A stretch of DNA of 64,000 nucleotides from an uncultured Candidatus Saccharibacteria bacterium (GTDB lineage Bacteria > Patescibacteriota > Doudnabacteria > UBA920): NCBI GenBank assembly GCA_964384035.1, contig CAYLIB010000001.1, positions 48,532 to 112,531 of the forward strand, in the 5' to 3' direction. A model generated the notes under the pieces. That model worked only from the letters and a program-made list of their open reading frames with translations, did not search any database and was not told where the DNA came from. A program made the position numbers and the translations under genes. Of this stretch, positions 26,917 to 58,600 are shown piece after piece; position 1 is the stretch's first letter, and each line of letters opens with the position of its first letter.

Positions 26917-28248
26917 ATGACAGGAACAAATCTGAACTCGCTTCTCAGCGAGTTTAAAAGACTAGCAGGAAACAACTTCCAACTTTTTACAAACCGATAT
27001 TTCCAAGCGAGGTCGGGAGGAGAATTCGTTCTCCCTTACGAAGCCATTCTTGAACACTTTGGCCTGAACCCCAAACTAGTTTCTGGCCAAACCTACATAA
27101 TCATATGCGATGCTTTCCGTGACTTAGACGACGAGAAGACTATCATTCTCATGAAAGCACTAATTGAATGCGAAGCCGAGCTCGCTGTCGTGGTCACAAA
27201 TCTAAACAGCGCGCTCGACCGGGCGTGCGGAGTTAAAGGATTACTAAGACTACTGGATCTGGGTTTTGTACCAGTAGGAGTAGGTACTGACGGCTCCAAC
27301 GAAGCGGTACCTTTCCATTTCGAAAGGACAGTACCTTTTGCAGTGCCCGCATACCAAGTAAACCCAGACGGTCAAGGCCTAATAATTAACACACTCACTT
27401 CCGCTAAGCCAAAAAGTGTAAGTGTATTACTAATCTCCTCACTTCGTGATATGGACATCATATTAGAAGAAAACAACTCCCTCTGCCGCGATCGGATAAA
27501 CCGAATTACCTTAATGGCGGGGGTAAAAATCGCAAATGGTAAACCAGAGTTGCTAAATGGCTTACTTCAAGCAGACATAAAGACTAACGGCGTAGGTGGT
27601 GCATCAAACTGCAATTTTGATACAGCTGCTAGCACAAGACTGTATCGGAACGCTCAAAAGCTCGAAATTCCTACTACAACTCTCACAAGAGTAACCGCGG
27701 GTGAAGTTAAGTTACCGTTTAGTATCTTCGATATTTGGGCTACTACAGGCCACCCAGCCGCCTCACGCCTCAAAGACGGTCAATCCCTTAGTTTCAATAA
27801 CTTACGCCTGGCTTGCCTTGAAGGCGAAGGCGGATCGCACCGAGTAGCCCTTGAACTCGCACTAGACCGAGACATAAACTGGTTCATCTATAAGGCATTT
27901 TTCAGAAACGCTCCAAAAGAAATACAGGAGCAAATTCTGAACCTGCCGTTACATGAATCTGTCTGGCCCATAGCCGCCGACTACGGCGAGCTTATGCCCT
28001 ACGACCCACTGGCACTACTCGCAAGCATAGAAGGCAACTCGCTGTTTAACTATCACTCCACAGTGGTAGGCGGAGCTGTTCACAAGGTGGTAGGTATAGA
28101 CGCCCAAAACACCGGCGCCCTAGACCCACTTTCCTTAAGAATGCTTCTGTTCATAGCCACAACAGAAGTACTCATAAGAACATCCAACCACGCCAAACGG
28201 GAGTTCCTGACCATCAAACGCGAACGCCTAGAAGCAAAAACTACCTAA
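26917..28248 (+). CDS. hypothetical protein (443 aa) with anomalously high GC
   Basis: Uninterrupted ORF. Sampled 60-nt blocks run 58-62% GC against about 35-40% in flanking genes. 'ICDAFRDLDDEKT' weakly resembles an aspartate-cluster motif of nucleoside hydrolases. Confidence 0.45.
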   Translation: MTGTNLNSLLSEFKRLAGNNFQLFTNRYFQARSGGEFVLPYEAILEHFGLNPKLVSGQTYIIICDAFRDLDDEKTIILMKALIECEAELAVVVTNLNSALDRACGVKGLLRLLDLGFVPVGVGTDGSNEAVPFHFERTVPFAVPAYQVNPDGQGLIINTLTSAKPKSVSVLLISSLRDMDIILEENNSLCRDRINRITLMAGVKIANGKPELLNGLLQADIKTNGVGGASNCNFDTAASTRLYRNAQKLEIPTTTLTRVTAGEVKLPFSIFDIWATTGHPAASRLKDGQSLSFNNLRLACLEGEGGSHRVALELALDRDINWFIYKAFFRNAPKEIQEQILNLPLHESVWPIAADYGELMPYDPLALLASIEGNSLFNYHSTVVGGAVHKVVGIDAQNTGALDPLSLRMLLFIATTEVLIRTSNHAKREFLTIKRERLEAKTT

Positions 28249-28588: not shown

Positions 28589-28665
28589 TGGTGGGCGCAC
28601 TAGGACTCGAACCTAGGACCCTCGAGGTATAAGCTCGATGCTCTAACCAACTGAGCTATGCGCCC
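28589..28665 (-). tRNA. tRNA-Ile(UAU)
   Basis: Acceptor GGGCGCA/TGCGCCC, D-arm AGCTCAGTTGGTTAGAGC, anticodon stem TCGAG/CTCGA with loop CTTATAC, CCA encoded. Confidence 0.6.
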
Positions 28666-28875
28666 AAAATACTAACCTACCAATTATAGGAAAGTTCCAG
28701 CATCTTGAAAAGACCTCCGATAAACATATTCAAAGAATAATAAAGTTATCCCCTGTTGTGCATAAACTGTGCACAACTACCCATTTTTCTGTGGGTAGAA
28801 CAAGGATGAAACATGTAAAACCCAAAATTCCCTTTTTCTATCAACTCCTCTATTCTTTATCTGGATGTTTTTACG

Positions 28876-28934
28876 GATTGCAGATTTGGAAATAGATCAT
28901 TGCTATAAGTAGCATCGCCCAAATATGCGATCCC
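28876..28934 (+). repeat. R3 element copy 1 (short) with 'gattgcagattt' and 'aaatatgcgatccc' termini
   Basis: It ends 21 nt before the purF-like start. An AAGGAGG RBS follows. Confidence 0.5.
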
Positions 28935-28955
28935 GTTTTCAAAAGGAGGAGATTT

Positions 28956-30227
28956 ATGGCAGGAATCTTTGGAATATTTAACCATAACGAAGCAAGTAAC
29001 TTTGCATACCTTGGATGTTATGCCATGCAACAACGTGGTACCAAACAATCAGGTATTGTAAGTTCCGATGAAAACAAACTTTACTCTTTTCATAGTCAGG
29101 GCCTCATAAAAAAATCAGTAAGCGAAGAAACAATCAGACGATTAAAAGGTAAACACGCAATTGCCCAGATAGATCACAAAAGTGGATTAGCACTTCCTTA
29201 CAAATTCAAACACGCCAGCGTAGGAGAAATTGCAGTATGTTTAGACTCGAACCAAAATCAACCTGTTTCATTGTTTAGTCTCTTAGGTAACAACGAACTT
29301 GAAAGTCTCATTCTTAGCAGTCTTCAATATCTAGACTTTAGCTCCGAAGAAACGCTTAGAATGAGTTTGAATGGTGTAAACAAAACGTTCATCGCACTTA
29401 ATAAGAACAAAATGCTAGTTTCGAGAGATCCTTGGGGAAATAGACCTCTAATTTTAGGAAAACTAGGCAAATCCATCTTGGTTAGCACTGAGTCAATATC
29501 CTTCGACCTGCTAGGGGCAGAAATAATACGAGAAGTAGAACCAGGAGAAGTAATTCTTATTACTGACACCTCATTTATCTCTCTTCTAAAAAGGCCTTCC
29601 GAGAACCTTCTTAAGTGCTCTTTTGAACACGTTTATTTCTCAAGACCCGACTCCATTATTTTTGACCAGAGCGTAAACAAAAGCCGTCACAAATGGGGAA
29701 AAATACTAGCAAAGGAACACCCTGTCGAAAAGGATTGTATCACATTAGGAGTACCTGACTCTGGGGTACCAGTAGCAGTAGGATTCTCCCAAGGATCAAA
29801 CACAAACTACTTAAATGGAATAATTCGCAACCGATACGTAGGAAAAATGGAAAGCAATGCTACGTTAAGCCCAAGTAGAGTCCGTACGAAGTTCAACGTA
29901 GACAGATCGTTAATTGAGGGACAAAAAGTTGCTTTACTAGACGATTCATTACTTGGAGGAGAAGTGGCTAGACTTCTAGTTCAGATGCTAAAAGACGCTG
30001 GAGCAATTGAAGTCCACGTTAGGATAGCGTGTCCACCCATTCTTTCCACTTGCCAATTTGGACAAGGCATCTCCAATCAAGGTGTTCTTATCGCCAAGAC
30101 CCATTCATTCGGAGAGATACTCAAACACCTCAAAGCAGATTCACTAGGATTCCTAAGTATGGAAAGTTTTCTCTCTGTGTTTCACTCCAAACAAAATTTT
30201 TGTACCGAATGTATGCGTCGAAGCTAG
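28956..30227 (+). CDS. amidophosphoribosyltransferase (PurF)-like protein with the N-terminal nucleophile Cys replaced by Ala
   Basis: 'MAGIFGIF...LGCYAMQQRGTKQSGIV' aligns with the PurF 'MCGIVGI...HRGQDAAGI' N-terminus. 'EHVYFSRPDS' and the PRTase motif 'VALLDDSLLGGEV' are present, as is a C-terminal CxxC. Confidence 0.7.
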   Translation: MAGIFGIFNHNEASNFAYLGCYAMQQRGTKQSGIVSSDENKLYSFHSQGLIKKSVSEETIRRLKGKHAIAQIDHKSGLALPYKFKHASVGEIAVCLDSNQNQPVSLFSLLGNNELESLILSSLQYLDFSSEETLRMSLNGVNKTFIALNKNKMLVSRDPWGNRPLILGKLGKSILVSTESISFDLLGAEIIREVEPGEVILITDTSFISLLKRPSENLLKCSFEHVYFSRPDSIIFDQSVNKSRHKWGKILAKEHPVEKDCITLGVPDSGVPVAVGFSQGSNTNYLNGIIRNRYVGKMESNATLSPSRVRTKFNVDRSLIEGQKVALLDDSLLGGEVARLLVQMLKDAGAIEVHVRIACPPILSTCQFGQGISNQGVLIAKTHSFGEILKHLKADSLGFLSMESFLSVFHSKQNFCTECMRRS

Positions 30228-30268
30228 ACTTCGATCTTTTTTTATGGAAAAATACATACACGCACTAA

Positions 30269-30580
30269 TTGAGTCGAAAAAATTCGACAAAGAAAAAAAA
30301 TATGGAAGAAGAAGATATAAAAAATATATTCGAAGACAAATATGCAGATTTGCTTGAAATGGGTTATGAGGAATGGTTAGAAAAATCTCCAAAAACCGAA
30401 GATCAAGCATATGCCAGATGCATCGCAATAGATCGTGAGTTAAACAAAACCTACGACGAGTGGTTCGATTCAAAAGGCGACAAGCGGGAAGAGCTAGGAG
30501 AACACCGCGCCAAACTAAAAGCCGAGTACGATCTCATAGAAGAAATATTCAAACTCGAAGCCAACGACCGCAGTTGGTAA
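30269..30580 (+). CDS. hypothetical acidic protein
   Basis: 103-aa ORF. Terminator at 30584-30616. Confidence 0.35.
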   Translation: MSRKNSTKKKNMEEEDIKNIFEDKYADLLEMGYEEWLEKSPKTEDQAYARCIAIDRELNKTYDEWFDSKGDKREELGEHRAKLKAEYDLIEEIFKLEANDRSW

Positions 30581-37983: not shown

Positions 37984-38469
37984 TTATTTGAACAAATTCT
38001 CTAAATCTGTGGTGTTATTAATCTCAGTTGTTTTAATTAGTCTCACAAATAATTTCTCCGACAACTGTAAGAGCTCTTCTTCTATTTCTTTCGGAAGCAT
38101 ATAAGGCGAAGCCCAAATACTCGTCTGCCATTTCTTAAACCCCAGTGCCAGGAGTCTACTACGAAGGTGATCTCTCACTTTTCGTTTCTTCTCCGGAATA
38201 TCAAATATTATAAGCTTCCAAACCCCATCCCTCACCGGATTCTGCTGAAGCGCCAAAACCGCCCCGTCCTCATTCAACACAACAACCTTAGCTTTATTTA
38301 CTTTCTTAATATCTAAATACCCCTGAAGCTTTAACCTGTACAAAGAGTCATAAACTTCCTTCTTAGGGAGCTTAGAAAACTCTTCATAAAAAGACTCTAT
38401 ACTAGTCTCCCCAGACCTGTGTAAATATTCAATTATCTTCCTAGCCAAACCATTATGCGTTCTCGACAT
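37984..38469 (-). CDS. PaaX-family-like winged-helix transcriptional regulator (short form)
   Basis: The C-terminal domain 'DGVWKLIIFDIPEKKRKVRDHLRSRLLALGFKKWQTSIWASP' matches the PaaX_C signature (W.L..FD.PE..R..R..LR..L...GF..LQ.S.W). Confidence 0.5.
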   Translation of the reverse strand: MSRTHNGLARKIIEYLHRSGETSIESFYEEFSKLPKKEVYDSLYRLKLQGYLDIKKVNKAKVVVLNEDGAVLALQQNPVRDGVWKLIIFDIPEKKRKVRDHLRSRLLALGFKKWQTSIWASPYMLPKEIEEELLQLSEKLFVRLIKTTEINNTTDLENLFK

Positions 38470-44024: not shown

Positions 44025-44972
44025 ATGAAAAGCTCAATTATAAAAATATTCACTATTAGTTTCCTTTTAGGTTGTTATTTATTCATTGCAAAAGGGGCAC
44101 AAGCTGCGATCCTTCAATACGAAATTCCTAAAAACACCGTACGAGTAGGTGACTCGGTTACTATGAAAATAATACTTAATACAGAAGGTGAAAGTATAAA
44201 TACAGGATCAATAACGTCAATTATTCCAGAGAGTTTAGTTATACAAAATATATCCACAGCAAAATCCATCTTCAAATATTGGGTAAACAATCCAGACCAT
44301 CCATCCTCAAACATTATCAGTTTTACTGGTGGCTTACCCAACCCAGGATTCAACGGTACAAACGGTATAATAGGAGAAATCACTTTAAAACCCACCAAAG
44401 CTGGTAAATTCTCACTATATGCAGAGAGAGGTTCGCAAATCCTAGTAAACGACGGCTTTGGTACAAGTGCAAATGTGCAAATTCTCCAAAATACCCTGCT
44501 AGTTCTCGACCCTGGTAAAAACTACTCCCCCTTACCTTCAACCAAAGCAATAGACAACACCCCTCCTCACGACCTTATGCTAATTATTGGGAATAGCCAA
44601 TCAGAATTTGACGGTAAATATTTTGCTAGCTTCCGAGCAGAAGATGATGAATCAGGAATAGACCATTACGAAATAAGCGAAAAAATTAAAAACCAGAATT
44701 TAACTAACAAGGACCCCAACCCAAATGACAAGTCGCTAATATGGCGCACCGCAACAAGCCCATATATATTGGAAAACCAGGATAACAACACCTATGTTTT
44801 CCTAAAAGCCATAGATAAAGCAGGTAATACTTCTATTGTTTGGAAAATGCATGAAATTAAAAAAACCCCAAAGTTACCTTGGTTAATAATAATTATTCTT
44901 CTTGCACTCTTATTCATCACATATAAAGTAGGTCCTATATGGGTAAATAAAAAACTTAAAAAAAATTCATAA
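44025..44972 (+). CDS. membrane-anchored protein with a cohesin-like beta-sandwich domain (tentative)
   Basis: Signal peptide, a beta-rich N-domain (…GIIGEITLKPTKAGKFSLYAE…) and a C-terminal TM with basic tail (LPWLIIIILLALLFITYK…KKLKKNS). It is adjacent to the dockerin gene. Confidence 0.35.
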   Translation: MKSSIIKIFTISFLLGCYLFIAKGAQAAILQYEIPKNTVRVGDSVTMKIILNTEGESINTGSITSIIPESLVIQNISTAKSIFKYWVNNPDHPSSNIISFTGGLPNPGFNGTNGIIGEITLKPTKAGKFSLYAERGSQILVNDGFGTSANVQILQNTLLVLDPGKNYSPLPSTKAIDNTPPHDLMLIIGNSQSEFDGKYFASFRAEDDESGIDHYEISEKIKNQNLTNKDPNPNDKSLIWRTATSPYILENQDNNTYVFLKAIDKAGNTSIVWKMHEIKKTPKLPWLIIIILLALLFITYKVGPIWVNKKLKKNS

Positions 44973-45031
44973 ATAGTAAATAATGTGTTATAATTTTTTA
45001 AGAATTTCCTTACAATAGAAATAAAAATAAT

Positions 45032-46156
45032 ATGTTTCAAAAGTTAAAAAGCAAACAAATAATTAAAGTTTCCAAAATTGTTGTAGCAGCACTTGTCCTT
45101 GGTATATTTGGTCTCCAACCCGCACCCGTAAACGCTGCTTCACTAACAACTGTAAAAGATACCCTTACCAGAATCGAACAAGCCCAAACCGCAGACCATA
45201 CAATAACATTTACACTCCCAGGTGGAGCCTCAAGCTTCGTAGCTGGCGATAAAATGTCCATTGACTTCCCAGCAAACTTCGTAACCTCAACGGGCTGGGC
45301 AACCTCAGATTTCACCTTTAACGACGGTACTTCAAGAACCATAACCACAGTAGGCACCAACTCTACTCCTACCTGTACGGCTGGTACTAATAATGTTTCT
45401 GTAGAAATTACAACAGCAAGCGACCTATTTGTAATTACCGCCTGTTCTACCTTCACAGCAAACTCATCAGCCAACATTACATTCACCATTCAAGGTACTG
45501 GCGCTAACGGAACCCTCACGAACCCTTCTTCTCCTGAGACTTCCGTAGTGGCAATAGTAGGTGATGATAAAGGAAACGGGTTCGGTTCAGACGACGACAC
45601 CGCTTCCCTAGCTATCCCAATCATCGCAGACGATACAGTTACAATTACAGCTACCGTGGACCCAACTATTACCTTCTCAATATCAGATACAGCTATTTCA
45701 TTTGGAACCCTGTCTTCGGGAGCTGCGCGGTACGCTACTGGAGACGGAACCAGTACATCTACTGACCCCTCTGGTGGTGCTCACAACCTACAAATCTCTA
45801 CCAATGCCACCAGCGGTTACATCGTTACTTACAAAGGTGCAACACTAACCAGCGGAGCTAACACTATCGATGTTCCAGGTACATTCATAAACAACGACGC
45901 CAACGGTACTCCAGGACAAGAAGAATTCGCTCTTTCTGTAAACAGACAAACCGGTACCGGTACGGTTGCCGCCAACTACCAATACACCGACCCAGACTGG
46001 GACTTCGACGCCAACACTACCACTACCATTTACACCCAAACCGCAGCAACCAACACTGAAACTCTAGAAATTCACTACCTCGCTAATATAGCTGGCGCTA
46101 CTCAAGCTGGCACCTACACCACAGACGTTACTTACATAGCTACTGGAACGTTCTAA
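45032..46156 (+). CDS. secreted beta-rich surface protein, paralog 1
   Basis: Signal peptide with AxA site (PVNA/AS). T/S/G/N-rich. C-terminus '...GTYTTDVTYIATGTF'. The last 565 nt are identical to 47946-48510. Confidence 0.55.
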   Translation: MFQKLKSKQIIKVSKIVVAALVLGIFGLQPAPVNAASLTTVKDTLTRIEQAQTADHTITFTLPGGASSFVAGDKMSIDFPANFVTSTGWATSDFTFNDGTSRTITTVGTNSTPTCTAGTNNVSVEITTASDLFVITACSTFTANSSANITFTIQGTGANGTLTNPSSPETSVVAIVGDDKGNGFGSDDDTASLAIPIIADDTVTITATVDPTITFSISDTAISFGTLSSGAARYATGDGTSTSTDPSGGAHNLQISTNATSGYIVTYKGATLTSGANTIDVPGTFINNDANGTPGQEEFALSVNRQTGTGTVAANYQYTDPDWDFDANTTTTIYTQTAATNTETLEIHYLANIAGATQAGTYTTDVTYIATGTF

Positions 46157-46164
46157 ATACATTC

Positions 46165-46190
46165 AAAACCGCCCATAAGGGCGGTTTTAT
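46165..46190 (+). terminator. rho-independent terminator
   Basis: aaaaccgcccataagggcggttttatt. Confidence 0.55.
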
Positions 46191-46233
46191 TATTCCTCAT
46201 GTTATAATTCCCTTAGAATATTTTACTTAACCA

Positions 46234-47295
46234 ATGCCTAGCTCTAAATTCTTCGTTATTCGTATATTCTCTCTATTCGTTATTCTCTATTCGTTACTCT
46301 TCATTCCACGCGAAGCTAGCGCCCTTACCATATCTCCTCCCAGATTAGAGACCTCGGCAGACCCAGGTCAAACAATAGAACAAGAAGTAAAAATCATCAA
46401 TGAAGAAAGATCCTCACGAACACTCTATATTGTTCCTCAAAACTTTGAAGCCAAAGACGAAAGCGGAGAACCAAATTACGTCGAAGGCACAGAAAACCTA
46501 GCCGGTTGGATAAAAGTAGCAAAATCAGTAAATCTCGGACCAGGTGAAGAAAAATTTGTAAAATTTTCTATTTCGGTTCCACCCACTGCTGAACCTGGTG
46601 GATATTTTACAGCTCTATTCTTCCAAAGTGAACCCCCTAGCTTTGAACAAGGTGCTGGTATTGGTATAGGTAGCCAGTTAGGAAGTTTAATTCTTTTAAA
46701 AGTTAATGGTGCTATAGGAGAGCAAGCGGGTATACTCGAATTTGCTACTAAAAACAAAGATCGCACTTTCTTAAATCTACCTATAGAATTCTACTACCGT
46801 TTCCAAAACACAGGAGACACGTGGGTTAAACCTTTAGGTGAAGTCTTTATAACAAACACATTCGGAAAAAGAGTAAAACTCCTTACAGCGAACAGGCAAA
46901 AAGGAAATGTGCTACCCAAAAGCATTCGCAAATTCGAAACTGCATGGTTAAATAGCGGTGGAAATATAAAGGAAGACCCAAAAGGTGAAATTGAATACCC
47001 AAAACTAGAAGATTTCTGGGCAAATGTAAAATATCAATATAGCAATTTCGCTTTCGGACTCTACACTGCCAAACTCCATTTAGCTTACGGCACAAATCCT
47101 GTGCAGGTAGGAGAAACAACTTTCAAATTTATCGTATTTCCTTGGCAGCTCACATTAGTAAGTACCATTCTCGCCATAATTATCTTAATTATTCTGAGAA
47201 TACTTATTAAAAAATACAATCAAAGTATTATTAGAAAAGCCCAAAATCAAATTCAAAGTAAAGACAACCCTACTTCCAAACGAGGTAAAAAATAA
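46234..47295 (+). CDS. CscA/DUF916-DUF3324-like cell-surface protein with C-terminal TM anchor
   Basis: Signal peptide, 'ALTISPPRLETSADPGQTIEQEVKIIN', C-terminal TM with K/R tail (WQLTLVSTILAIIILIILRILIKKYN). Confidence 0.45.
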   Translation: MPSSKFFVIRIFSLFVILYSLLFIPREASALTISPPRLETSADPGQTIEQEVKIINEERSSRTLYIVPQNFEAKDESGEPNYVEGTENLAGWIKVAKSVNLGPGEEKFVKFSISVPPTAEPGGYFTALFFQSEPPSFEQGAGIGIGSQLGSLILLKVNGAIGEQAGILEFATKNKDRTFLNLPIEFYYRFQNTGDTWVKPLGEVFITNTFGKRVKLLTANRQKGNVLPKSIRKFETAWLNSGGNIKEDPKGEIEYPKLEDFWANVKYQYSNFAFGLYTAKLHLAYGTNPVQVGETTFKFIVFPWQLTLVSTILAIIILIILRILIKKYNQSIIRKAQNQIQSKDNPTSKRGKK

Positions 47296-47390
47296 AATAT
47301 AAAAAACACCAAATAGTTCTTTGGTGTTTTTTAAAAATTAAAAAATAATTTTATGTTATACTTTTTCTATAAAACAACTTTATAAATTCC

Positions 47391-48509
47391 ATGTTAAAGC
47401 TTCTAAACAAAAATCAAAAAATAACAAAGTTAGTTATCACTGCATTAATCCTCAGCGTGTTTGGTCTCCAACCTTCACCCGTAAACGCTGCTTCACTAAC
47501 AACTGTAAAAGACACCCTTACCAGAATCGAACAAGCCCAAACCGCAGACCATACAGTACAATGGACATTACCCGGCGGCGCATCTAGTTTCGTTGCTGGA
47601 GATAAGGCAAGAGTAGATTTCCCGGCAAACTTTGTTACTAGTACAGAATCGGGTTGGGTAGCCGGAGACTTCACGTACAACGATGGTACCTCAAGAACTA
47701 TTGTAGCAGTGGGAGCATCACCGTCATGTTCTGCAGGTGCCAACAATATTACTGTCCAAATAGACTCTGCTAATGACCAATTTATTATCACAGCCTGCGC
47801 TTCCTTTACCGCTAACTCCTCAGCTAATGTTTCATTTACTATAGACGGAACCACAACAGACGGAACCCTTACAAATCCTTCTTCCCCAGAAACATCCGTG
47901 GTAGCTATCGTCGGTGACGATCAGGGCGACGGCTTCGGAAGCAATGACGACACCGCTTCCCTAGCTATCCCAATCATCGCAGACGATACAGTTACAATTA
48001 CAGCTACCGTGGACCCAACTATTACCTTCTCAATATCAGATACAGCTATTTCATTTGGAACCCTGTCTTCGGGAGCTGCGCGGTACGCTACTGGAGACGG
48101 AACCAGTACATCTACTGACCCCTCTGGTGGTGCTCACAACCTACAAATCTCTACCAATGCCACCAGCGGTTACATCGTTACTTACAAAGGTGCAACACTA
48201 ACCAGCGGAGCTAACACTATCGATGTTCCAGGTACATTCATAAACAACGACGCCAACGGTACTCCAGGACAAGAAGAATTCGCTCTTTCTGTAAACAGAC
48301 AAACCGGTACCGGTACGGTTGCCGCCAACTACCAATACACCGACCCAGACTGGGACTTCGACGCCAACACTACCACTACCATTTACACCCAAACCGCAGC
48401 AACCAACACTGAAACTCTAGAAATTCACTACCTCGCTAATATAGCTGGCGCTACTCAAGCTGGCACCTACACCACAGACGTTACTTACATAGCTACTGGA
48501 ACGTTCTAA
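47391..48509 (+). CDS. secreted beta-rich surface protein, paralog 2
   Basis: N-terminal half is about 60% identical to paralog 1. The C-terminal 188 aa are identical. Confidence 0.55.
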   Translation: MLKLLNKNQKITKLVITALILSVFGLQPSPVNAASLTTVKDTLTRIEQAQTADHTVQWTLPGGASSFVAGDKARVDFPANFVTSTESGWVAGDFTYNDGTSRTIVAVGASPSCSAGANNITVQIDSANDQFIITACASFTANSSANVSFTIDGTTTDGTLTNPSSPETSVVAIVGDDQGDGFGSNDDTASLAIPIIADDTVTITATVDPTITFSISDTAISFGTLSSGAARYATGDGTSTSTDPSGGAHNLQISTNATSGYIVTYKGATLTSGANTIDVPGTFINNDANGTPGQEEFALSVNRQTGTGTVAANYQYTDPDWDFDANTTTTIYTQTAATNTETLEIHYLANIAGATQAGTYTTDVTYIATGTF

Positions 48510-48578
48510 AAAAACTAAAAGAGCTTTTGCTTAATGCAAAAGCTCTTTTGTTTTATTTCTACGTGTTAAAATAATCTT

Positions 48579-49676
48579 ATGCGTAACAAAATTTTATCTT
48601 CTATCTACTTATTCATCTTTATTTTTTCCTCCTTTTTTGGAGTAGCCAACGCACAAACACTGAATTCTACCAACTACAACCTAGAAAACTCGTCGTTTAA
48701 TTTCGGTGGCGAAGAAAGCAGCTCAACAAACTATAAATCGCAAGACTCAGTAGGTGACGCAAACGATTCAGGCTCAAGCTCTACGAATTACAAAGTCTTT
48801 CCTGGTACAATACAGCCCGTATATCCAGGTGTACCGGGTATACCAACCTTAACCAATACAGGTGGCACACTTTATAACTCCCTCGACTTTGTGGTCACAG
48901 AAGGCCCCGGAAACGCAAGCGACGTACTGTATGCAATAGCAATCTCGGACGACAACTTCACTACAACCTATTTTATTCAAACAGATGACACATTAGGAGC
49001 TAGCGCAGTTTGGCAAACTTATACCAACTGGGGAAGCGGAACTGGTGAAAGAGTTACGGGTCTTAAAAGCAACACCACTTACAAAATAAAAGTAAAAGCC
49101 CGCTTCGAAGCCGATACAGAAACCCCTTATTCTGTTGAAGCCAGTGCCGCTACAGCCAATCCTTCAATCTCAGTTAGCTTTGCTGGAATATCCAGCAGCA
49201 CCAGCGTAGAAGGCCAAACAACAACTATCACATCTACCGCAACAACTGTCCCCTTTGGCACTCTTATTGTAAGCACCCCCGCCGTAGGTGCTCAGAGAAT
49301 AACAGTTAGCACAAACGCCGTTAACGGATACACAACAACTATCCAACAAAACCAAGACCTGACCCAAGCTCAAAGCAAAACCATAGACGGCGTATCCGGC
49401 ACCAACGCCTCCCCCTCCAGTTTTCCCGGAAGTGTTTCTCGTGGAGCGTTTGGTTACCACACTAGCGACACTACTCTATGCACTGGCACTACTGGAAGGT
49501 TTACTGCTGACGACACTTACGCAAAAATAACCACCACAGCGCTAGAAATTGCCTGTAACACAGGAACAGCCTCAAGCGAACAAACTGACATAGTATACAA
49601 ACTTCTAATTGGACCCCTACAAGAAAACGGCGCCTACACAAACGACGTAACATTCATAACCACTGGCACCTTTTAA
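48579..49676 (+). CDS. secreted beta-rich surface protein, related family (C-terminus '...GAYTNDVTFITTGTF')
   Basis: Signal peptide, T/S-rich, shares the C-terminal TGTF motif with the paralogs. Confidence 0.5.
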   Translation: MRNKILSSIYLFIFIFSSFFGVANAQTLNSTNYNLENSSFNFGGEESSSTNYKSQDSVGDANDSGSSSTNYKVFPGTIQPVYPGVPGIPTLTNTGGTLYNSLDFVVTEGPGNASDVLYAIAISDDNFTTTYFIQTDDTLGASAVWQTYTNWGSGTGERVTGLKSNTTYKIKVKARFEADTETPYSVEASAATANPSISVSFAGISSSTSVEGQTTTITSTATTVPFGTLIVSTPAVGAQRITVSTNAVNGYTTTIQQNQDLTQAQSKTIDGVSGTNASPSSFPGSVSRGAFGYHTSDTTLCTGTTGRFTADDTYAKITTTALEIACNTGTASSEQTDIVYKLLIGPLQENGAYTNDVTFITTGTF

Positions 49677-49741
49677 AAAAATAACGCAATAAAAATCTCG
49701 GCACACCGAGATTTTTATTTTCATCATGTTAAAATGAATTC

Positions 49742-50776
49742 ATGCGCATCTCTAAATTCTCCATTAGTCATTCGTTACCTGTCCTCCGTAGCTTCAGCGT
49801 AGGAGGATTCGTCATTCTTTATTCTCTATTCGTCATTCTCTATTCACCATTCCCTAAAACTACTTTCGCCCAGTCAACATTGCCGACCGAAAAACCCTAC
49901 CTAAGCCAAAACGCCCTCTCCATAGCACCGTTTATAATCGAAGAGAGCATGGAAAAAGGACAAACAATAGAAAAAGAAATAGAAATTAGCAATATAGGAG
50001 ACGTCCCACTACCCCTAAGTCTCAGTATCAACGACTTCATTCCAGTAGATAAAGAAGGCCATGTCCGCTTTCTTTCCGAGGAAGAAAAAAAAGATGACAG
50101 ATTTTCTCTCTCTCACTGGATCACAATCACGGAACAACCTGAATTCAACATCAAAGCACTAAGCAAAACAAAAGTAAAATTCAAAATTACCGCCCCCGTC
50201 TCGGCTGAACCAGGAACTCATTATGGTGGTTTATTATTTGGCTACGAACCAACAGTCCAAAATATTCCTGGAACGAAAGTAAAGCAGAAACTCGGCGCAC
50301 TTGTGATCATTACACTAGGCAAAGCTAAAGAGCAGGGAGAAATAAGCGGGTTTTTAGTAAACCAAGACTGGAAATCTAAAAGTATATTGGAATTCTCAAC
50401 AATATTTAAAAATACAGGGAGAAGTAGAGTAATTCCTAAAGGAGAAATAGAAATAAGAAATTGGTACGGAAAAATTATCTCAAGTAGCCACATAAACGTC
50501 GACGGTTCGATTGTACTTCCAGAAACCGAACGAAACTTCGTTACTAAATTGGAAAAACCCTTTTTATTAGGCTATTATACAGCAGAGAGTTTTGTACAAT
50601 TTGGTAATCCTAAACAAGAAAAAAGGGTAAAAATGAGCTTCTGGGTACTACCAGTAAAACCCATAATTTCTGTCTTAGCTTTTATTTCACTATTCACCCT
50701 AAGTCTATATTTTGGCCTCAAACGTTACAATCGCTGGCTAATAAAAAAAGTCGGCTTAGAAACTAAAAACCAATAA
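49742..50776 (+). CDS. CscA/DUF916-like cell-surface protein with C-terminal TM anchor
   Basis: 'LSIAPFIIEESMEKGQTIEKEIEISNIGDVPL' plus a C-terminal TM and basic tail. Confidence 0.45.
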   Translation: MRISKFSISHSLPVLRSFSVGGFVILYSLFVILYSPFPKTTFAQSTLPTEKPYLSQNALSIAPFIIEESMEKGQTIEKEIEISNIGDVPLPLSLSINDFIPVDKEGHVRFLSEEEKKDDRFSLSHWITITEQPEFNIKALSKTKVKFKITAPVSAEPGTHYGGLLFGYEPTVQNIPGTKVKQKLGALVIITLGKAKEQGEISGFLVNQDWKSKSILEFSTIFKNTGRSRVIPKGEIEIRNWYGKIISSSHINVDGSIVLPETERNFVTKLEKPFLLGYYTAESFVQFGNPKQEKRVKMSFWVLPVKPIISVLAFISLFTLSLYFGLKRYNRWLIKKVGLETKNQ

Positions 50777-51891
50777 TGTCTTTAAAATTTAAACCCAAGT
50801 TTTTCCGCATATTTCTAGTTTCCCTACTTGTTACTATTCACTTGTTACTTTTTACTAGCAACACTAAAGCGTTGACCGTCTCCCCCGTTCGCTTAGAGCT
50901 TAGCGGAGACGCAGGAGATACCGTATTCGGAAACTTCAAACTCTTCAACGAAAAGGATGAAAATTTAAAATATTTCATTGTTTTCCGAACCTTCTCTGCA
51001 AAAGACGAGACTGGGGAACCCAATTTCCCGGATACCCAAGATGAATTCATATCATGGGTAAATGTCTCTCCGGAAGTAACCGTACCAGCAAAAGACTATA
51101 AAGAACTTACATTCAAAGTAAATATCCCCAAAAATGCAGATCCGGGTGCTCACTTTGCTGCGATATTCGCTTCCACAGTTCCCCCAAAAGATGGCGAAAA
51201 TTCATCAAACCTAAAAATAACAGGCGAAGTTGGTACTTTAATTCTTTTCCGAGTAAACGGTGATTTCAAAGATGGCGCGGACATATTAGAATTTAATACC
51301 AAAGATAAAAAAAACAGCTTTACAGAATTACCAGTTTGGTTCTACTACCGCTTCCAAAACAGTGGTAATAACTACATAAAACCCCTTGGCGACATAATTA
51401 TAAAAAATTTCTTCGGGGGAACAAGCAAAGTAATTCCAGCCAACCGAGATAAAGGCAACATCTTACCACAAAGCGTTAGACGATTTGAAGCAGCATGGTG
51501 GGAAGGAAGTGGTGCAAAAAACCAAAGCCCAGATTTTAAAGGTTATAGTGAACCACAAACATTCTTAGAGCATGTTTCTCACCAATGGAACAACTTTGCC
51601 TTCGGAAAATACACCGCAACCCTCAACCTAGCATATGACAAGTCTACAGACAAAGCCGCCACAGCAACAATAAGCTTCTGGTTAATTCCTTGGCATCTAT
51701 TATCAGTTATAGCAGCAGTAGGTACAGTATTCTTTGGCGGAATTATTTTCATAGCTATCGTCATTGCCGTATTCTTTATGAAAATTCAAGACAAAAAGCC
51801 CAAGAAAAAGAAGAAAACTACAAAACCAACAAGAAAAAAGGCTATTCCAGTCGCAGAAAACGAAGACTCAAAACAAGATGAACAGAATTAA
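50776..51891 (+). CDS. CscA/DUF916-like cell-surface protein with C-terminal TM anchor and poly-Lys tail
   Basis: 'ALTVSPVRLELSGDAGDTVFGNFKLFN', 'GTLILFRVNG', 'WFYYRFQNSGNNYIKPLG' (shared with the 46234 protein), TM + KKPKKKKK tail. Confidence 0.45.
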   Translation: MSLKFKPKFFRIFLVSLLVTIHLLLFTSNTKALTVSPVRLELSGDAGDTVFGNFKLFNEKDENLKYFIVFRTFSAKDETGEPNFPDTQDEFISWVNVSPEVTVPAKDYKELTFKVNIPKNADPGAHFAAIFASTVPPKDGENSSNLKITGEVGTLILFRVNGDFKDGADILEFNTKDKKNSFTELPVWFYYRFQNSGNNYIKPLGDIIIKNFFGGTSKVIPANRDKGNILPQSVRRFEAAWWEGSGAKNQSPDFKGYSEPQTFLEHVSHQWNNFAFGKYTATLNLAYDKSTDKAATATISFWLIPWHLLSVIAAVGTVFFGGIIFIAIVIAVFFMKIQDKKPKKKKKTTKPTRKKAIPVAENEDSKQDEQN

Positions 51892-52607: not shown

Positions 52608-55600
52608 ATGGGAGAAAATAAAATTAAACAACTTTTGACTTCAGTCCAAAAGCCTGGAAGCCTCGTGCTACTGGCCGTACTTTTGTTTGGTTCTATTTTC
52701 CCCCAAAGCTTCGCTCTCCCTGTAAAAACTGCCGAAGCTGCAACTGGTGTCCCACTTCAAATAAACTTCCAAGGAAGATTAACTCTTGCAACAGGTGCTG
52801 TTGGTACAAACGTTGCTAATGGTACCTACGCCATGCGTTTCAAACTCTATGACGCACTCACTTCCGGAACCCTACTCTGGACAGAAACCTACGACCAAGC
52901 ACCAGTAGACCCATGTCAAAAAGTTCAAGTTACTGCCGGAGTATTTAACGTAAAACTCGGATCTTGTGCAACTTTAAGCGGAGTAGATTTCACAAGCGAC
53001 AGCCTATACCTATCGGTAGACTTCGCACCAACCGGTACTAGCTACGACGGTGAAATGTCCCCAAGAAAGCGTTTAGTTTCCGCTCCTTACGCAATAAACG
53101 CAAATAACTTAGCGGGAAACGGTAAAATAGACCTCACCAACACAGCAACCACCACAACTCCGTTCAAACTAACTGCAAATACTCTCACCACAGGAAGCGG
53201 ACTTACTCTGACCACAACCACCAATTCCGCAGCAAACACCGCTTGGACAGGTGCTACGCTTACCTTTAACAACGCACAAGCTTCTACTGCTGTATCGAGC
53301 GGTTCTATTGCTGGTCTAGACATTCAGTTCAACCAAAATACTGCCATCGCTGGTAACACCGAAACCGCTGCAAGAATAAACGTAAAACAAAATGACTCTT
53401 CTTCCACAGACGCAACTGTAGCTTCTCTCTTAGACCTCGCCAACAACGACACCGCTACAGGAAACCAAATAACAGTTTCAGATGCATTGAAAATTACAGG
53501 GAGCAATGTTACCAACGGCATTAACCTTTCAGGAACCTTTGCAAGCAATCTTATTACCTCAACAAACTTCACAGTAGCTCAGAGTGGGCAAATAACATCA
53601 GCTAACTTAGGTGGAAGCGGAACCCAGTGTTTGCAAGCTAGCAACACCGGTGTAATTTCTGGTACTGGCGGCGCTTGCGGCGGTACCACCACCCTCCAAT
53701 CAGCCTACGGTAACGACGTGGACGGAAGCGACACCACCATCTCCCTTACCACAGCCGACGATTCAGTAATAATAACTAACCCATCTTCTTCTGGAACTGA
53801 CTCAACTTTCGTGCTCAAAGTCGACCAAGCCGCAAGTGGCGCAGTCGATTCACTTATTGTAAACAACGCAGGCACCGGAACCCTTGCCACCTTAGACGCT
53901 TCTAACGCTTCTGGTAACGGTGTTTCCATAGATGTTCAAAGCTCTTCATCTTCCCAATATGCCCTAAAAGTAACCAGCAACAACGGCTCCACCAATGGCC
54001 TATACGTTAGAGCCGATGGAAACGTAGGTATAGGAACCACCAGTCCAACTCAAAAATTATATGTTGCTGGTGATGCATTAATAGGTAACACAGGTACCGG
54101 AAAATTATACTTCGACGATACAAATGGTTGGATTGCCAGAACCGCCGCTGGTAACACACTCCAATTCTCACCAAGTGGAAATGCTACTTCAATGTCCCTT
54201 ACTTCAAGCAGATTACACGTTGGATCCGACCCCGCCACAACTGGTTATACCGCAAACTTTTTCGTCATAGGTGCCAACGCTGGTTCTGGTGGTGCACAGC
54301 AGACCATCTGGTTTGGAGCATCTGCCAGGGGTGGAAATACAGGTAGTGGACACAACACCGTGCTAAGCGGTGGCGCGGGGTCTACTGCCACAACCGGTTC
54401 AATTGGTGGGAATGTTAATATTTACGGCGGCAACGCAAATGGAACAGGCGACAATAATGGTGGATCAATCTATTTAGACGGTGGCACAGCAACAGGCACA
54501 GGAACCGCTGGTAATATTTTACTAGCATCAACTACCGGTAAAGTCGGAATTGGAACATCTTCTCCATCTGCACTCCTTCATGTACAGAAAGACAATATCG
54601 GTAGCACTTCCACAGACGGTGAAGCATTGGTAAACAGTACCGCAGCAGGAGTCGGAGCACAACAATTCTCACCACGACTTCGCTTCACTGGCCAAGGCTG
54701 GAAAACAAACGCTACCGCCGCAAGCCAAACAGTCGACTGGGCTATAGAAAACCAGCCAGTTCAAGGAGCTGCCAACCCTTCAACAAATTTATCTTTTAAC
54801 TACCAAATAAACGGTGGAGGATATTCAAACATCCTAACCTTAACTTCCGGAGGGGTAATTGGTACCGACGCTGTTTCAACTGCGAATGCAAGTTTCGGTG
54901 TTATAAATTCTAGTGCCCTCAGAACCGGTATGAAAATTTCGAGCGATGATATCTATTTTACCCAAAACAGTTCCGACAAACTTCGCTTGTTAAACGGAAT
55001 TGGTATAAGAACACGTTCTGACAACTATTTTGGATGGAGCTCAGGAGCAGACGTCTCTTCAGCAACCGACTTATTCCTAAGAAGGAATGCTGCAGCAAAT
55101 CTCGCTCTGGGAGCAGTAGATGCTGCATCACCAGTGGCACAAACCATCTCTGTTCAAAACGTCTCTACAGGCACAAGCGACACCGCAGGGGCAGCATTAA
55201 GTATTGCCGGCTCTCAAGGGACTGGTACCGGTGTTGGTGGTTCCATCCTCTTCAAAACGGCACCAGCTGGATCCACAGGTTCTTCTCAAAACGCCCTAAC
55301 AACAGCCATGACAATATTAGGCAGTGGGAAAATCGGAATAGGTACCACCACTCCGTCAGACCTATTGGATGTAAATGGCGCAATTAACTCTACTGCACTA
55401 ACCATCAGCCAAACTTCTCCCTCCTCAACCAACAGATACATAATAGGTAACAGTAACGGTTTTGCACTACGAAGCAACATTAGCTACGGATGGGGCTCTG
55501 GATCGGGAGATGCTGGTGGCTCAAAAGACACCGGTATCTCTCGTGGAGCTGCAAACACCGTCTACATTGGAAACGGTACTGGTGGGGACTCAAGTGGTAC

Positions 55601-58600
55601 TTTAGTTGCAACAAATATAGGAATTGGATCCACTTCTCCTGGTTCCAACCTAGATATCGACAGAGCAGACGCATCTTCTATAACAGCAGAACAAATTCTC
55701 TTCAGAAGCAACAACACTGCACAAACCCTAACAGATGGAACAACAATAACAAATTGGAGAAACAATCAGTTCCTAGCTCCTACCATAAATGGCGTGGCTG
55801 GGGGAGGCACTGAAACAGTTACCAATGCTGCTACGTTATATGTAGATAACGCTCCCGCAGGTAGCAACATTACAATTACTAACCCATATGCTCTCTGGGT
55901 AGATGAAGGCGCAGCAAGATTCGACCGTGAATCTATTGGCACCACCTCAACTGATGGCATAATTCTACAAAACAGCACCGCAGCAGGCGCAGGTGCACAA
56001 CAATACTCCCCAAGAATCCGCCTTACCGGCCAAGGTTGGAAAACAGATGCTACGGCCGCAAGCCAAACCGTAGACTGGATAATGGAAGCTCGCCCAGTTC
56101 AAGGCGCAGCAAATCCTACTGTAAACTTAGCAATCCTCGCCCAAGTTAATGGTGGTGGTTATACAAGCGCAATTGCCCCAGGTCAAATACTTGCACCAGG
56201 AGGAGCCTCCACTTCTCAAGCCGCACCTCAATATTCAGCAATAAACAACTCAGCCTATGGACTTAAGATAGGAGGAGGAAACGCCGGTAACGCAGTTGCA
56301 CTCGTTGGTAATAACACTTCTTACTTAAATATCGATGCAAATGTAAACGCCATTGGTATAAAATCAAACGCCACACTACGATGGGGTGCAGAAAACTTTG
56401 GCACTACCCAAGTATCCCTCTCTTCTCCCTCGAATGACAACCTATTGCTTAGAGACTCAAGTGTTACTGGTCCAGGTAACTTTATCATCGGTTCAACCTC
56501 AACTTTACCAGGCACCTCTGGAAAAGGTGTGTTAGTGGTTGGATTAGGCACTGTACCAACATCCTCACCAGCCGATATCTTCCAAATATATGCAGCAGAC
56601 TACGCTGCCGGGGATACTCGTGCTTTCTTAAGAACAGAATCCGGTACTGCACAAATAATAGGAAACAACTCTATTGGAACTGCGCCTTCAACAGGCACAG
56701 ATACCGCTGGAACAAACTTCAGTCTTTTCGGTGGCCAAGGAACAGGTACTGGAATAGGTGGTAATGTAGTTCTACAAGCAGCTTACCCAAGCACCACTGG
56801 CTCTACTGCAAATTCACTCACAGATGTATTCACAATACTCGCTTCCAACAAAGCAACATCTGGCACTCAAAACTTAGTTTCTATAACTCCGACTGTAAAC
56901 CAATCCTCCACTGCTGCATACAATGCTCTATTAGTAAACGTAACCGAAACAGCAACGGGTAGTGGTGCAAAAAACCTTCTTAAATTACAAGTTGGTGGCA
57001 CAGATAAATTTAACGTAAGTAACTCCGGCGTAATCACTTCTAGCTCACTCGCAGGTGGTGGAACTTTATGTTTACAAACCGATAACAATGGTGTCATATC
57101 TCCCGCTGCATCTGCCTGTGGATCAGCCTCAACCACCCTCCAATCAGCCTATGGGAACGACGTAGATGGCTCAGACGCAACCATTTCTCTTACCACAGCA
57201 GACGACTCCATAATAGTAACCAACCCATCTTCCTCTGGCACAGACTCTACCTTCACTTTCAAAATCAACCAAGCAGCTTCTGGTGCTGTAGACGCTCTCA
57301 TCATAGACAATGCAGGAACTGGCACACTTGGCACCTTTGACGCCTCAAACGCCTCTGGCAATGGTATATCTATAGACGTACAAAGCTCCTCTGCCTCTCA
57401 ATATGGTTTAAGAGTAACGGCAAACAATGGTGCTACCAATGCACTATGGGTAGGCGGCGATGGCAGGGTTGGTATTGGTGATGTAAATCCAGCAAGTCTC
57501 TTCACCGTAGGATCTGGAGATTTGTTCCAAATAAATACCACAGGTCAAATAGGTTCCCAGCAAGCCCCACTCTCTGACTATCTTTTCGCACTTGCAGGTA
57601 CCACAGGCAACGACAACAGCAGAATCATAGATATAACTCAGGAAAATGATGAAGTAGAAGATTCAACTGTAATTAATATAGTCAACACAGCCAATGCAGG
57701 CACAATTGCCTCTGGTGCTACAAGAAATATTAAAAATATTTACACCTCACTTACGCCAACTATAACTTTTAGCACTACTGGCGTACAGGCTTCTGCCAAT
57801 ATTTACGGAGCTGACAACAATGTTTCTTTAGCAAATGTAAGCATACCCAATGTTCCCACGTCGAGAAGCAGGACAGTCAACTCTTATGGTAGTAGCTCAA
57901 CGGTAAGTGCAGGTATTACACTTAACGACACCAATGGTGGTTCGACGATTACCCTTAATACATATGGTACATACGGAGCCGTGACCGCAAGTCCCACTTT
58001 AACAGCATTGTCTACATCCACAAACGCTACCTATGCCGCAGGTTATTTTAATAACACTTTAAGCTCAGCGGGAAATGCCTTTTTTAATCCTGGAGCCTTT
58101 GGCATTATAGCTATAACAAATGGAAATTTAACCACCACTGGCGGTACTTCTCATACGGGTGGATATTTTGATGTTGGTGGTACAGCAGTAAACAATTACG
58201 GTATTCAAATTAACAGTGTAACAGCAGCTACAAACAACTACGGATTATATATGGATAGTATTGCCTCTGCTGCTTCTAACTATGCCATATACTCAAACGC
58301 TGCCGCTCAAAGCTATTTTGCAGGGAATATAGGTATCGGTACCACCGTCCCAGATTCTCAATTACACATTGGTGCTACCACAGGCTCTCTAACTACTAGT
58401 ACATCTATAAATATAAGCAAAATAAACTTCGCATCTGCCTCTACCATTGCAGGTTCCGGTGCTCAAATCTATGGACAGTTCATAGATATGTCCAACATTA
58501 CCGGTGCTGCCGATACCGCCGTAGTAGCCAGCGCAAAATATCTCCTTCCTAGTCAAACAAACTCTACTATCAATGCGTACAATTACGTAGGCGCAACAGT

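Follow-up and report, generated by a model that had tools for sequence, protein, structure and literature searches.

A PurF-like protein of Saccharibacteria-like lineages that lacks the catalytic cysteine and has a degenerate phosphoribosyltransferase site

We analyzed a 64,000-nucleotide stretch of DNA from an uncultured Candidatus Saccharibacteria bacterium (hereafter the window), concentrating on a gene for a 423-aa protein related to PurF, the amidophosphoribosyltransferase of the first purine step. A sequence-only reading of this locus had reported that the protein aligns with PurF across both the N-terminal nucleophile (Ntn) glutaminase domain and the phosphoribosyltransferase (PRTase) domain, and that it lacks the N-terminal cysteine. 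Both observations are upheld here, although the cysteine turns out not to be the only loss: the glutamine site, the RTFI motif of the flexible loop and the residues equivalent to Arg350, Thr352 and Thr353 of the phosphoribosyl pyrophosphate (PRPP) loop are replaced as well. The gene lies between a tRNA-Ile (28589..28665) and a gene for a 92-aa protein (30302..30580), and the following features were assigned to it from the sequence and from an open reading frame (ORF) scan:

28758..28819, plus strand: conserved non-coding block of about 62 nt, about 140-200 nt 5′ of the start, with an inverted repeat and a 15-mer
28942..28949, plus strand: Shine-Dalgarno sequence AAAGGAGG, 6 nt ahead of the ATG
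28956..30227, plus strand: PurF-like coding sequence, 423 aa and stop (ORF scan), with an Ntn-glutaminase-like domain at about aa 1-220 and a type I PRTase-like domain at about aa 221-423
28959..28961, plus strand: codon 2, GCA, encoding Ala where PurF has its nucleophile Cys1
29241..29249, plus strand: L96-D97-S98, replacing the oxyanion-hole H-N-G (His101-Asn102-Gly103 of Bacillus subtilis PurF)
29616..29618, plus strand: Cys221, equivalent to B. subtilis Cys236, [4Fe-4S] ligand 1
29841..29861, plus strand: G296-K-M-E-S-N-A302, degenerate start of the flexible loop (canonical G-R-T-F-I-x-P), within the low-confidence model segment aa 295-310
29940..29966, plus strand: PRPP loop D329-D330-S-L-L-G-G-E-V337 (canonical DDSIVRGTT), with Arg350, Thr352 and Thr353 lost
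30051..30053, plus strand: Cys366, equivalent to B. subtilis Cys382, [4Fe-4S] ligand 2
30201..30212, plus strand: Cys416-x-x-Cys419, equivalent to B. subtilis Cys437 and Cys440, [4Fe-4S] ligands 3 and 4
30217..30245, plus strand: terminator-like hairpin (30217..30235) followed by a T run, overlapping the stop codon

The N-terminus reads MAGIFGIFNHNEAS / MAGIFGIF (Met-Ala-Gly-Ile-Phe-Gly; ORF scan), and no alternative start could yield a cysteine, as an in-frame TAG at 28893 lies 63 nt 5′ of the ATG with no ATG, GTG or TTG between them. The same protein is present in JGI metagenome 3300006899, in Logan assembly SRR12487045 and at NCBI, and a 92%-identical allele (locus L004) was found in the NCBI metagenome-assembled genome CAYSUI01, whose record is titled 'uncultured Candidatus Saccharibacteria bacterium'. 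The window, the JGI and Logan copies and the CAYSUI01 strain all share the Shine-Dalgarno sequence and ATG GCA. Two divergent relatives, at loci L001 and L008, have ATG TCT (Ser) and ATG GCA (Ala) as their first two codons, each behind its own GGAGG, an element kept before the start in 5/5 assemblies and 3/3 lineages. Every lineage has Ala or Ser directly ahead of the G-I-F-G motif, and an N-terminally extended, read-through database variant (P0123) runs ...F-M-A-G-I-F-G, again with no Cys. Because the start region is the same across assemblies and the relatives, too, lack Cys behind their own start, a sequencing error or a wrong start — the two findings that the sequence-only reading had named as able to overturn the cysteine loss — is excluded. 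Mis-started archaeal PurFs are known in databases (PMC3261824), but with a GCA codon unchanged across independent assemblies, a closed upstream frame and Ala or Ser at this position throughout, we give practically no weight to an artefact, whether a codon-2 error or a miscalled start masking a propeptide that ends in Cys.

Sequence and structure comparisons place the protein firmly in the PurF family. Among Protein Data Bank (PDB) entries, 1gph/1ao0 (B. subtilis PurF) matched residues 3-419 with an E value of about 3e-76 to 4e-76 and the Arabidopsis entry 6lbp matched with 7e-65, and the match to Escherichia coli PurF was confined to the PRTase half. AlphaFold2, run on an alignment of 107 sequences, gave a model with a predicted local distance difference test score (pLDDT) of 88.7 and a predicted template modelling (TM) score of 0.88, with low confidence in aa 101-130, a shortened glutaminase segment, and in aa 295-310, the flexible loop of the PRTase domain. 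Foldseek ranked 1ao0 (TM 0.88), 6lbp and 1gph at the top, followed by E. coli PurF, with 34-35% identity to B. subtilis-type PurF over the structural alignments. The NCBIfam model TIGR01134 (purF) matched with an E value of 9e-74 and 249.3 bits, short of its equivalog cutoff of 350; a Pfam scan found GATase_7 below threshold and did not detect Pribosyltran (PF00156), which was detected in the L001 homolog. The nearest canonical relatives in this comparison are bacterial PurFs of Acidobacteriota and cyanobacterial type. The window ORF encodes a full-length, two-domain homolog of the [4Fe-4S] PurFs typified by the B. subtilis and plant enzymes. It shares with B. subtilis PurF (EC 2.4.2.14) the architecture, the fold, the four cluster-ligand cysteines and the motifs R26-G27, RDxxGxRPL, SE(T/S), CxxExxY, VPDSG, NxY and DD, and differs from it in having about 12-19 fewer residues in the glutaminase domain (aa 101-130), a truncated C-terminal tail, a location outside any pur operon and a sub-cutoff equivalog score, in lacking Cys1, the glutamine site and RTFI, and in reading GGEV for RGTT.

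Active-site residues were audited against the mature B. subtilis sequence, which was rebuilt from the PDB alignment and aligned with 107 homologs; B. subtilis numbering is used throughout. Eighty-eight canonical PurFs served as the reference for a clade made up of the window protein, the L004 strain and the L001 and L008 homologs. The L004 allele agrees with the window protein at the positions below, including the Ala at position 1, except that Thr75 is Lys in L004:

Cys1: Cys in 88/88 canonical PurFs; Ala in the window protein, Ser in L001, Ala in L008
Arg72: Arg in 83/88; Asp in the window protein, His in L001, Gly in L008
Tyr73: Tyr in 83/88; His in the window protein, His in L001, gap in L008
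Thr75: Thr in 81/88; Ser in the window protein, Lys in L001, gap in L008
His101: His in 77/88; Leu in the window protein, Leu in L001, Leu in L008
Asn102: Asn in 86/88; Asp in the window protein, Asp in L001, Asp in L008
Gly103: Gly in 88/88; Ser in the window protein, Gly in L001, Gly in L008
Asp127: Asp in 86/88; Asn in the window protein, Gly in L001, Asp in L008
R311-T-F-I314: mostly RTFI; K-M-E-S with a 2-residue deletion in the window protein, KMER in L001, RLMS in L008
Arg350: Arg in 85/88; Gly in the window protein, Gly in L001, Arg in L008
Thr352: Thr in 75/88; Glu in the window protein, Arg in L001, Ile in L008
Thr353: Thr in 85/88; Val in the window protein, Ala in L001, Thr in L008

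In PurF, a mutant of the cysteine is inactive, the DDS residues and a tyrosine are required, and the ammonia channel does not form until the flexible loop has closed over PRPP (PMC7056826). The E. coli enzyme contacts a glutamine analogue through Arg73, Thr76 and Gly102, and carbocyclic PRPP (cPRPP) through Thr333, Phe334, Arg371, Thr374, Lys349 and Tyr258 (PMC7953260); of these, 2/6 of the residues for PRPP and none of those for glutamine survive in the window protein. Thr333 and Phe334 correspond to the flexible loop, and Arg371 and Thr374 to the PRPP loop. With nucleophile, oxyanion hole and glutamine-binding residues all missing, hydrolysis of glutamine is not to be expected, and glutamine amidotransferase activity is predicted to be impossible. 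The sequence-only reading had reached the same view of the glutaminase half-reaction from the missing Cys1, and the replacement of the whole glutamine and oxyanion site strengthens it.

The PRTase half is affected as well. The motif that the sequence-only reading had quoted as the mark of this domain, VALLDDSLLGGEV, is indeed present at aa 325-337, reading VALL-DD-SLL-G-G-E-V with its hydrophobic run, acidic pair and glycine in place, but it is degenerate relative to the canonical VVLVDDSIVRGTT, its final Thr replaced by Val. Together with the replaced RTFI motif and the other PRPP-loop changes, this leaves the domain compromised. Retained over the whole protein are R26-G27, Tyr242, the P-D-S pyrophosphate (PPi) loop, R305-N306-x-Y308, Lys328, Asp345-Asp346-Ser347, Gly351 and His370. 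The four predicted Fe-S ligand cysteines are the same in 107/107 aligned homologs; the protein ends 4 residues past Cys419, and the usual F-T-G-x-Y-P tail is missing. The window protein thus departs from PurF at the N-terminal Cys, the glutamine/oxyanion site, the PRPP loop and the flexible loop, and in its equivalog score. Its glutamine site is lost, as are most side chains for clamping PRPP and closing the channel, and we therefore conclude that it is not the amidophosphoribosyltransferase of the purine pathway.

The gene is nonetheless maintained. Comparison with the L004 allele gave a ratio of nonsynonymous to synonymous substitution rates (dN/dS) of 0.066 for the whole gene, with 0.065 and 0.059 for the N- and C-domains respectively, at a synonymous rate (dS) of 0.59; neighboring rsmI gave 0.076 in the same strain comparison. 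Both domains are under strong purifying selection, and the gene is therefore functional. The ORF is free of frameshifts and internal stops in 5 assemblies from 3 lineages, and its GC content (0.40 overall; 0.34 at third codon positions, GC3) is in line with that of host genes. Because it has its own terminator-like hairpin and T run at the stop codon, it is predicted to be a stand-alone transcription unit.

The family is small. A phmmer-type search of 5.8 billion proteins returned the exact cluster and a single 46%-identical relative, the L001 homolog (P0002, from Logan SRR23592405), which starts MSGIFAI; the matches after it were ordinary PurFs with the cysteine, at about 40% identity. When 1.84 billion cluster representatives were searched with a profile, the exact cluster and P0002 scored 884 and 778 bits and the next match 325, and a second, final profile search brought in no further members. 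A genome scan for relatives found only the 92%-identical strain, and the conserved upstream DNA motif, used to scan metagenomes, matched 9 unrelated sequences by chance. The third member was recognized by synteny alone: a 440-aa PurF-like gene at L008, starting MAGLLGIW and about 30% identical to the window protein and P0002, lies directly 5′ of the gene for the closest homolog (78% identity) of the downstream 92-aa protein. Common to all three lineages are the absence of Cys1, C-L-D in place of A-H-N, the four Fe-S cysteines and the DD pair. In a neighbor-joining tree they form one clade, with 100% bootstrap support for the window pair plus P0002 and 48% once L008 is added, placed among other long-branch degenerate sequences.

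Shared position is a stronger argument than the tree for a common origin of the three lineages. Related Saccharibacteria-like genomes share the core order gyrA - variable genes - tRNA-Ile (UAU, minus strand) - 92-aa gene - rsmI - yebC - ruvC - tyrS (minus strand) - PBP1, and in all three lineages the PurF-like gene occupies the same variable slot, after the tRNA-Ile and before the 92-aa gene and rsmI. Four other loci with the core order (L005, L006, L007 and L009) have neither the gene nor a remnant of it (4/4), and across the 92-aa family, which comprises 68 clusters, the PurF-like gene accompanies the 92-aa gene in 3 of about 68 lineages. A functional pairing of the PurF-like and 92-aa proteins was considered and rejected, as 4/4 other genomes inspected keep the 92-aa gene upstream of rsmI without its putative partner; a terminator-like hairpin also separates the two genes. 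A phage origin was likewise rejected, since phage records held only ordinary PurFs at 31-35% identity, as was membership of a defence system, PADLOC having matched neither the PurF-like gene nor its neighbors.

Several observations concern the flanking genes themselves. The 92-aa protein (30302..30580, plus strand) is acidic and probably helical, has no Pfam family and shows a dN/dS of 0.019; its family clusters, at 55-78% identity, come from Saccharibacteria/Patescibacteria, one genome carrying a radical-SAM gene before rsmI. Divergence from the window is discordant between the two proteins, at 78% identity for the 92-aa protein and about 30% for the PurF-like protein in L008, and at 58% and 46% respectively in L001, which suggests accelerated evolution or replacement in the same slot. 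The tRNA-Ile, with anticodon UAU, holds the same syntenic position in the window (28589..28665, minus strand) and at L004 (9670..9746), L005 (1691..1766), L006 (5498..5574) and L007 (5570..5646); in these bacteria AUA is apparently decoded by a UAU tRNA and not solely by a lysidine-modified CAU tRNA.

The region 5′ of the gene is conserved as well. The window block at 28758..28819 aligns with L008 430..492 at a local score of 55, against a shuffle maximum of 30, and has survived even though the PurF-like proteins now share about 30% identity. Within it are DnaA-box-like 9-mers and an inverted repeat, whose sequence is GTTGTGCA-N7-TGCACAAC in the window and GTTGTCCAC-AAC-GTGGATAAC in L008; the fold z-score of the block is -3.5. 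The 15-mer GAACAAGGATGAAAC is exact in L002-L004 and L008 and occurs in no related locus that lacks the gene. Conserved between two independent sequences, the block could be an operator, a leader RNA or part of a cassette that brought the gene in. An origin of replication (oriC) was rejected, since the 64-kb window has only 4 consensus DnaA boxes, against 2.4 expected, and its GC skew shows no inflection; scans for a known riboswitch or leader RNA, at Rfam gathering and permissive thresholds, returned only the tRNA-Ile from the upstream region.

PurF proteins without the cysteine have been described before. Crenarchaeal PurF′ (Ala/Val) and Methanocorpusculum Mlab_0150 (Ser) are paralogs of this kind (Brown et al. 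2011, Biol Direct 6:63, PMC3261824); PurF′ genes sit beside a bona fide purF and other pur genes, and ammonia dependence was proposed for them (PMC3261824). Like the window protein, PurF′ and Mlab_0150 have the N-terminal Cys replaced and were judged unfit as glutamine amidotransferases (PMC3261824). PurF′ belongs to purine-synthesizing archaea, whereas the window gene is bacterial and alone among housekeeping genes, and the window protein, unlike PurF′ as described, additionally lacks PRTase contacts. The neighbors of the window gene are tRNA-Ile, a XopQ-like gene, the 92-aa gene, rsmI, yebC, ruvC and gyrA; unlike PurF′, it has no canonical purF beside it.

Loss of the cysteine also recurs among bacteria. 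About 20 of the best 150 profile-search representatives have Ser, Gly, Ala or Thr in place of Cys1. In an alignment of 269 PurF homologs, 231 had both Cys1 and Asn102, 3 had Cys without Asn, 4 had Asn without Cys and 18 had neither (15 of them with Asp at position 102), a coupling with a Fisher p of 5e-21 for sequences that are non-independent. Half of the Cys-less proteins have an intact PRTase signature. One of these, the Tissierellia-like P0129 (L020 7512..13754, Logan SRR27197536), starts Met-Gly-Gly, carries Asp102 with RTFI and RGTT intact, and is encoded inside a purE-purF*-purM-purN-purH-purD-fhs operon; from this it is presumably a working ammonia-using PurF. P0129, P0125 and P0176 (Tissierellia/Bacillota) and Dolosicoccus P0287 resemble the window protein in having Ser, Gly, Ala or Thr at position 1 and Asp for Asn102, but these proteins keep RTFI and DDSIVRGTT, unlike the window protein, and are probably working ammonia-using enzymes. 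Because loss of Cys1 and Asn102 recurs and some of these proteins sit in intact pur operons, ammonia-dependent PurFs probably constitute a widespread class.

Other Cys-less proteins are degenerate in both halves. P0147 (L021 1684..3039, uncultured bacterium) lies outside a pur operon, near topA, dprA and hicAB, and P0174 (L022 5061..6422, uncultured bacterium), which reads VHS for DDS, lies directly 3′ of the gene for inosine-5′-monophosphate dehydrogenase (IMPDH). By its residues and its setting the window protein belongs with this doubly degenerate kind found outside pur operons. A literature search found no paper on a doubly degenerate PurF-like protein. Cys-less PurF being already known, the window protein is a new and more extreme variant, doubly degenerate and present in a few Saccharibacteria-like lineages. 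A precedent for a non-catalytic class II N-domain is offered by beta-lactam synthetase and carbapenam synthetase, which derive from AsnB and retain a dead, Cys-less Ntn domain as a scaffold; their C-terminal synthetase site is fully active, whereas the C-terminal site of the window protein is degenerate too. Beta-lactam synthetase is also a distant Foldseek match to the window model.

No de novo purine gene was found among the scanned ORFs of at least 120 aa in the window, in agreement with the sequence-only reading, and none was found in the L001 and L008 contigs. Housekeeping genes in the window include gyrA, ddl, an rpsA-like S1 gene, infB, PBP1, yidC, rsmI, yebC, ruvC and tyrS, and published Saccharibacteria genomes were judged incapable of de novo nucleotide synthesis (PMC7786006). 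A homolog of XopQ/HopQ1-type inosine-uridine nucleoside N-ribohydrolases (443 aa; no Pfam match; PDB 4p5f/4kl0 at an E value of 1e-14, and 7jlu) is encoded at 26917..28248 on the plus strand. Its GC3 of 0.455, against 0.28-0.41 for its neighbors, and its dS to the sister strain of 0.07, against 0.2-2.0 around it, suggest a recent horizontal import or recombination.

The reading that we favor is that of a PurF-derived protein which keeps the two-domain fold and the four cysteines predicted to bind a [4Fe-4S] cluster, and which would have given up glutamine hydrolysis along with most PRPP-clamping and channel-closing side chains. On this proposal the Fe-S-stabilized scaffold would present a leftover PRTase pocket — the equivalents of the Asp-Asp pair, the PPi loop, Tyr242 and Lys328 — that could bind a phosphoribosyl compound or a purine nucleotide, and the protein would act as a binding or regulatory protein, not as a catalyst. 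We put the chance that it is a maintained pseudoenzyme with a putative binding or regulatory role at about even. Several points weigh against this reading. The L008 homolog keeps Arg350 and Thr353, so that productive PRPP binding may persist at least in that member; even with the Thr side chains gone, a 5′-phosphate could be held by main-chain amides of the PRPP loop; a need of the fold for its cluster may be the sole reason why the Fe-S cysteines are retained; and adjacency to the 92-aa gene is core synteny, which offers no functional clue. A more specific proposal, which we advance tentatively and would not expect to hold in full, is of a Saccharibacteria-specific family of PurF-derived [4Fe-4S] pseudoenzymes acting as a sensor or regulator (of purine nucleotides, PRPP, or oxygen via a labile cluster) or as a new phosphoribosyl-handling enzyme, with the upstream inverted repeat as a dedicated control region.

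The sequence-only reading had left three options for the protein — ammonia-dependent, regulatory or repurposed — of which the losses in the PRTase domain make the ammonia-dependent PurF the least likely. In that scheme, as proposed for PurF′, ammonia would attack PRPP directly and the dead glutaminase domain would serve as a scaffold. E. coli Cys1 mutants are indeed described as keeping ammonia-dependent activity while losing glutamine-dependent activity (Mei & Zalkin 1989, as cited in PMC3261824), the window protein still has Tyr242, Lys328, the PPi loop and the DD pair, and the Gly1/Asp102 PurF in a Tissierellia pur operon makes it probable that such enzymes exist. Yet those operon-borne proteins keep RTFI and RGTT, whereas the window protein has neither and has lost 4/6 PRPP hydrogen-bonding residues; PurD or another user of the unstable product is absent from nearby window ORFs of at least 120 aa; and the pathway is generally absent from Saccharibacteria (PMC7786006), so that we consider ammonia-dependent PRPP amination distinctly improbable. 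A neofunctionalized enzyme, which would use a new nucleophile or substrate for some other transfer or hydrolysis of ribosyl or phosphoribosyl groups, for example in salvage of purines or nucleotides from the host, would accommodate the strong purifying selection on both domains, the conserved acidic pair and PPi loop and the clade-specific conserved replacements (the C-L-D motif and AYLGCYAMQQRGT), as well as the XopQ/HopQ1-like ribohydrolase homolog two features upstream and the location of P0174 next to IMPDH. The 5′-phosphate loop, however, differs by lineage (GGEV, GGRA, RGIT), which speaks against a precise active site common to them, and the XopQ-like gene is separated from the PurF-like gene by a terminator-like hairpin and an opposite-strand tRNA, resembles a recent import in its GC3 and dS, and was not seen beside the L008 homolog; we regard this reading as unlikely, if still a serious contender. 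Finally, the many missing catalytic residues, the patchy spread over 3 of about 68 lineages with the 92-aa gene and the fast deep divergence (30% identity, against 78% for the neighboring protein) could be taken as signs of a functionless remnant decaying after loss of the purine pathway. A dN/dS similar to that of rsmI, the intact frames in five assemblies and three lineages, and the conservation of the Shine-Dalgarno sequence, the upstream block and all four Fe-S cysteines make such decay very improbable.

The Cys-less relatives carry the database label 'amidophosphoribosyltransferase', and an automated label of this kind would wrongly credit reduced genomes, such as those of Saccharibacteria, with the first purine step. 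The coupled loss of Cys1 with the change of Asn102 to Asp over many lineages, some with intact pur operons, is similarly useful for pathway annotation. With two degenerate sites, retained Fe-S ligands and strong purifying selection, the window protein is a clean candidate for a bacterial pseudoenzyme drawn from central metabolism. A sensor or regulator would suit an epibiont that depends on its host for all purines, and if the protein does sense purine nucleotides, PRPP or redox state, it would bear on how epibionts monitor host supply.

Elsewhere in the window, seven successive ORFs of 315-374 aa, mostly without a Pfam match and one with a WxL-interacting peptidoglycan-binding domain, come after a gene for a CHB_HEX/dockerin protein and before a 3479-aa ORF; this region (44025..51891 and 52608..63047, plus strand) is probably a cell-surface gene cluster. 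An N6/N4 DNA methylase (1261..2064, minus strand) overlaps by 17 nt a 322-aa ORF without a Pfam match (309..1277, minus strand), and the two could form a restriction-modification pair. At 37984..38469, the minus strand encodes a protein of 161 aa in which a PaaX central Cas2-like domain was recognized (PF20803, E value 5e-18).

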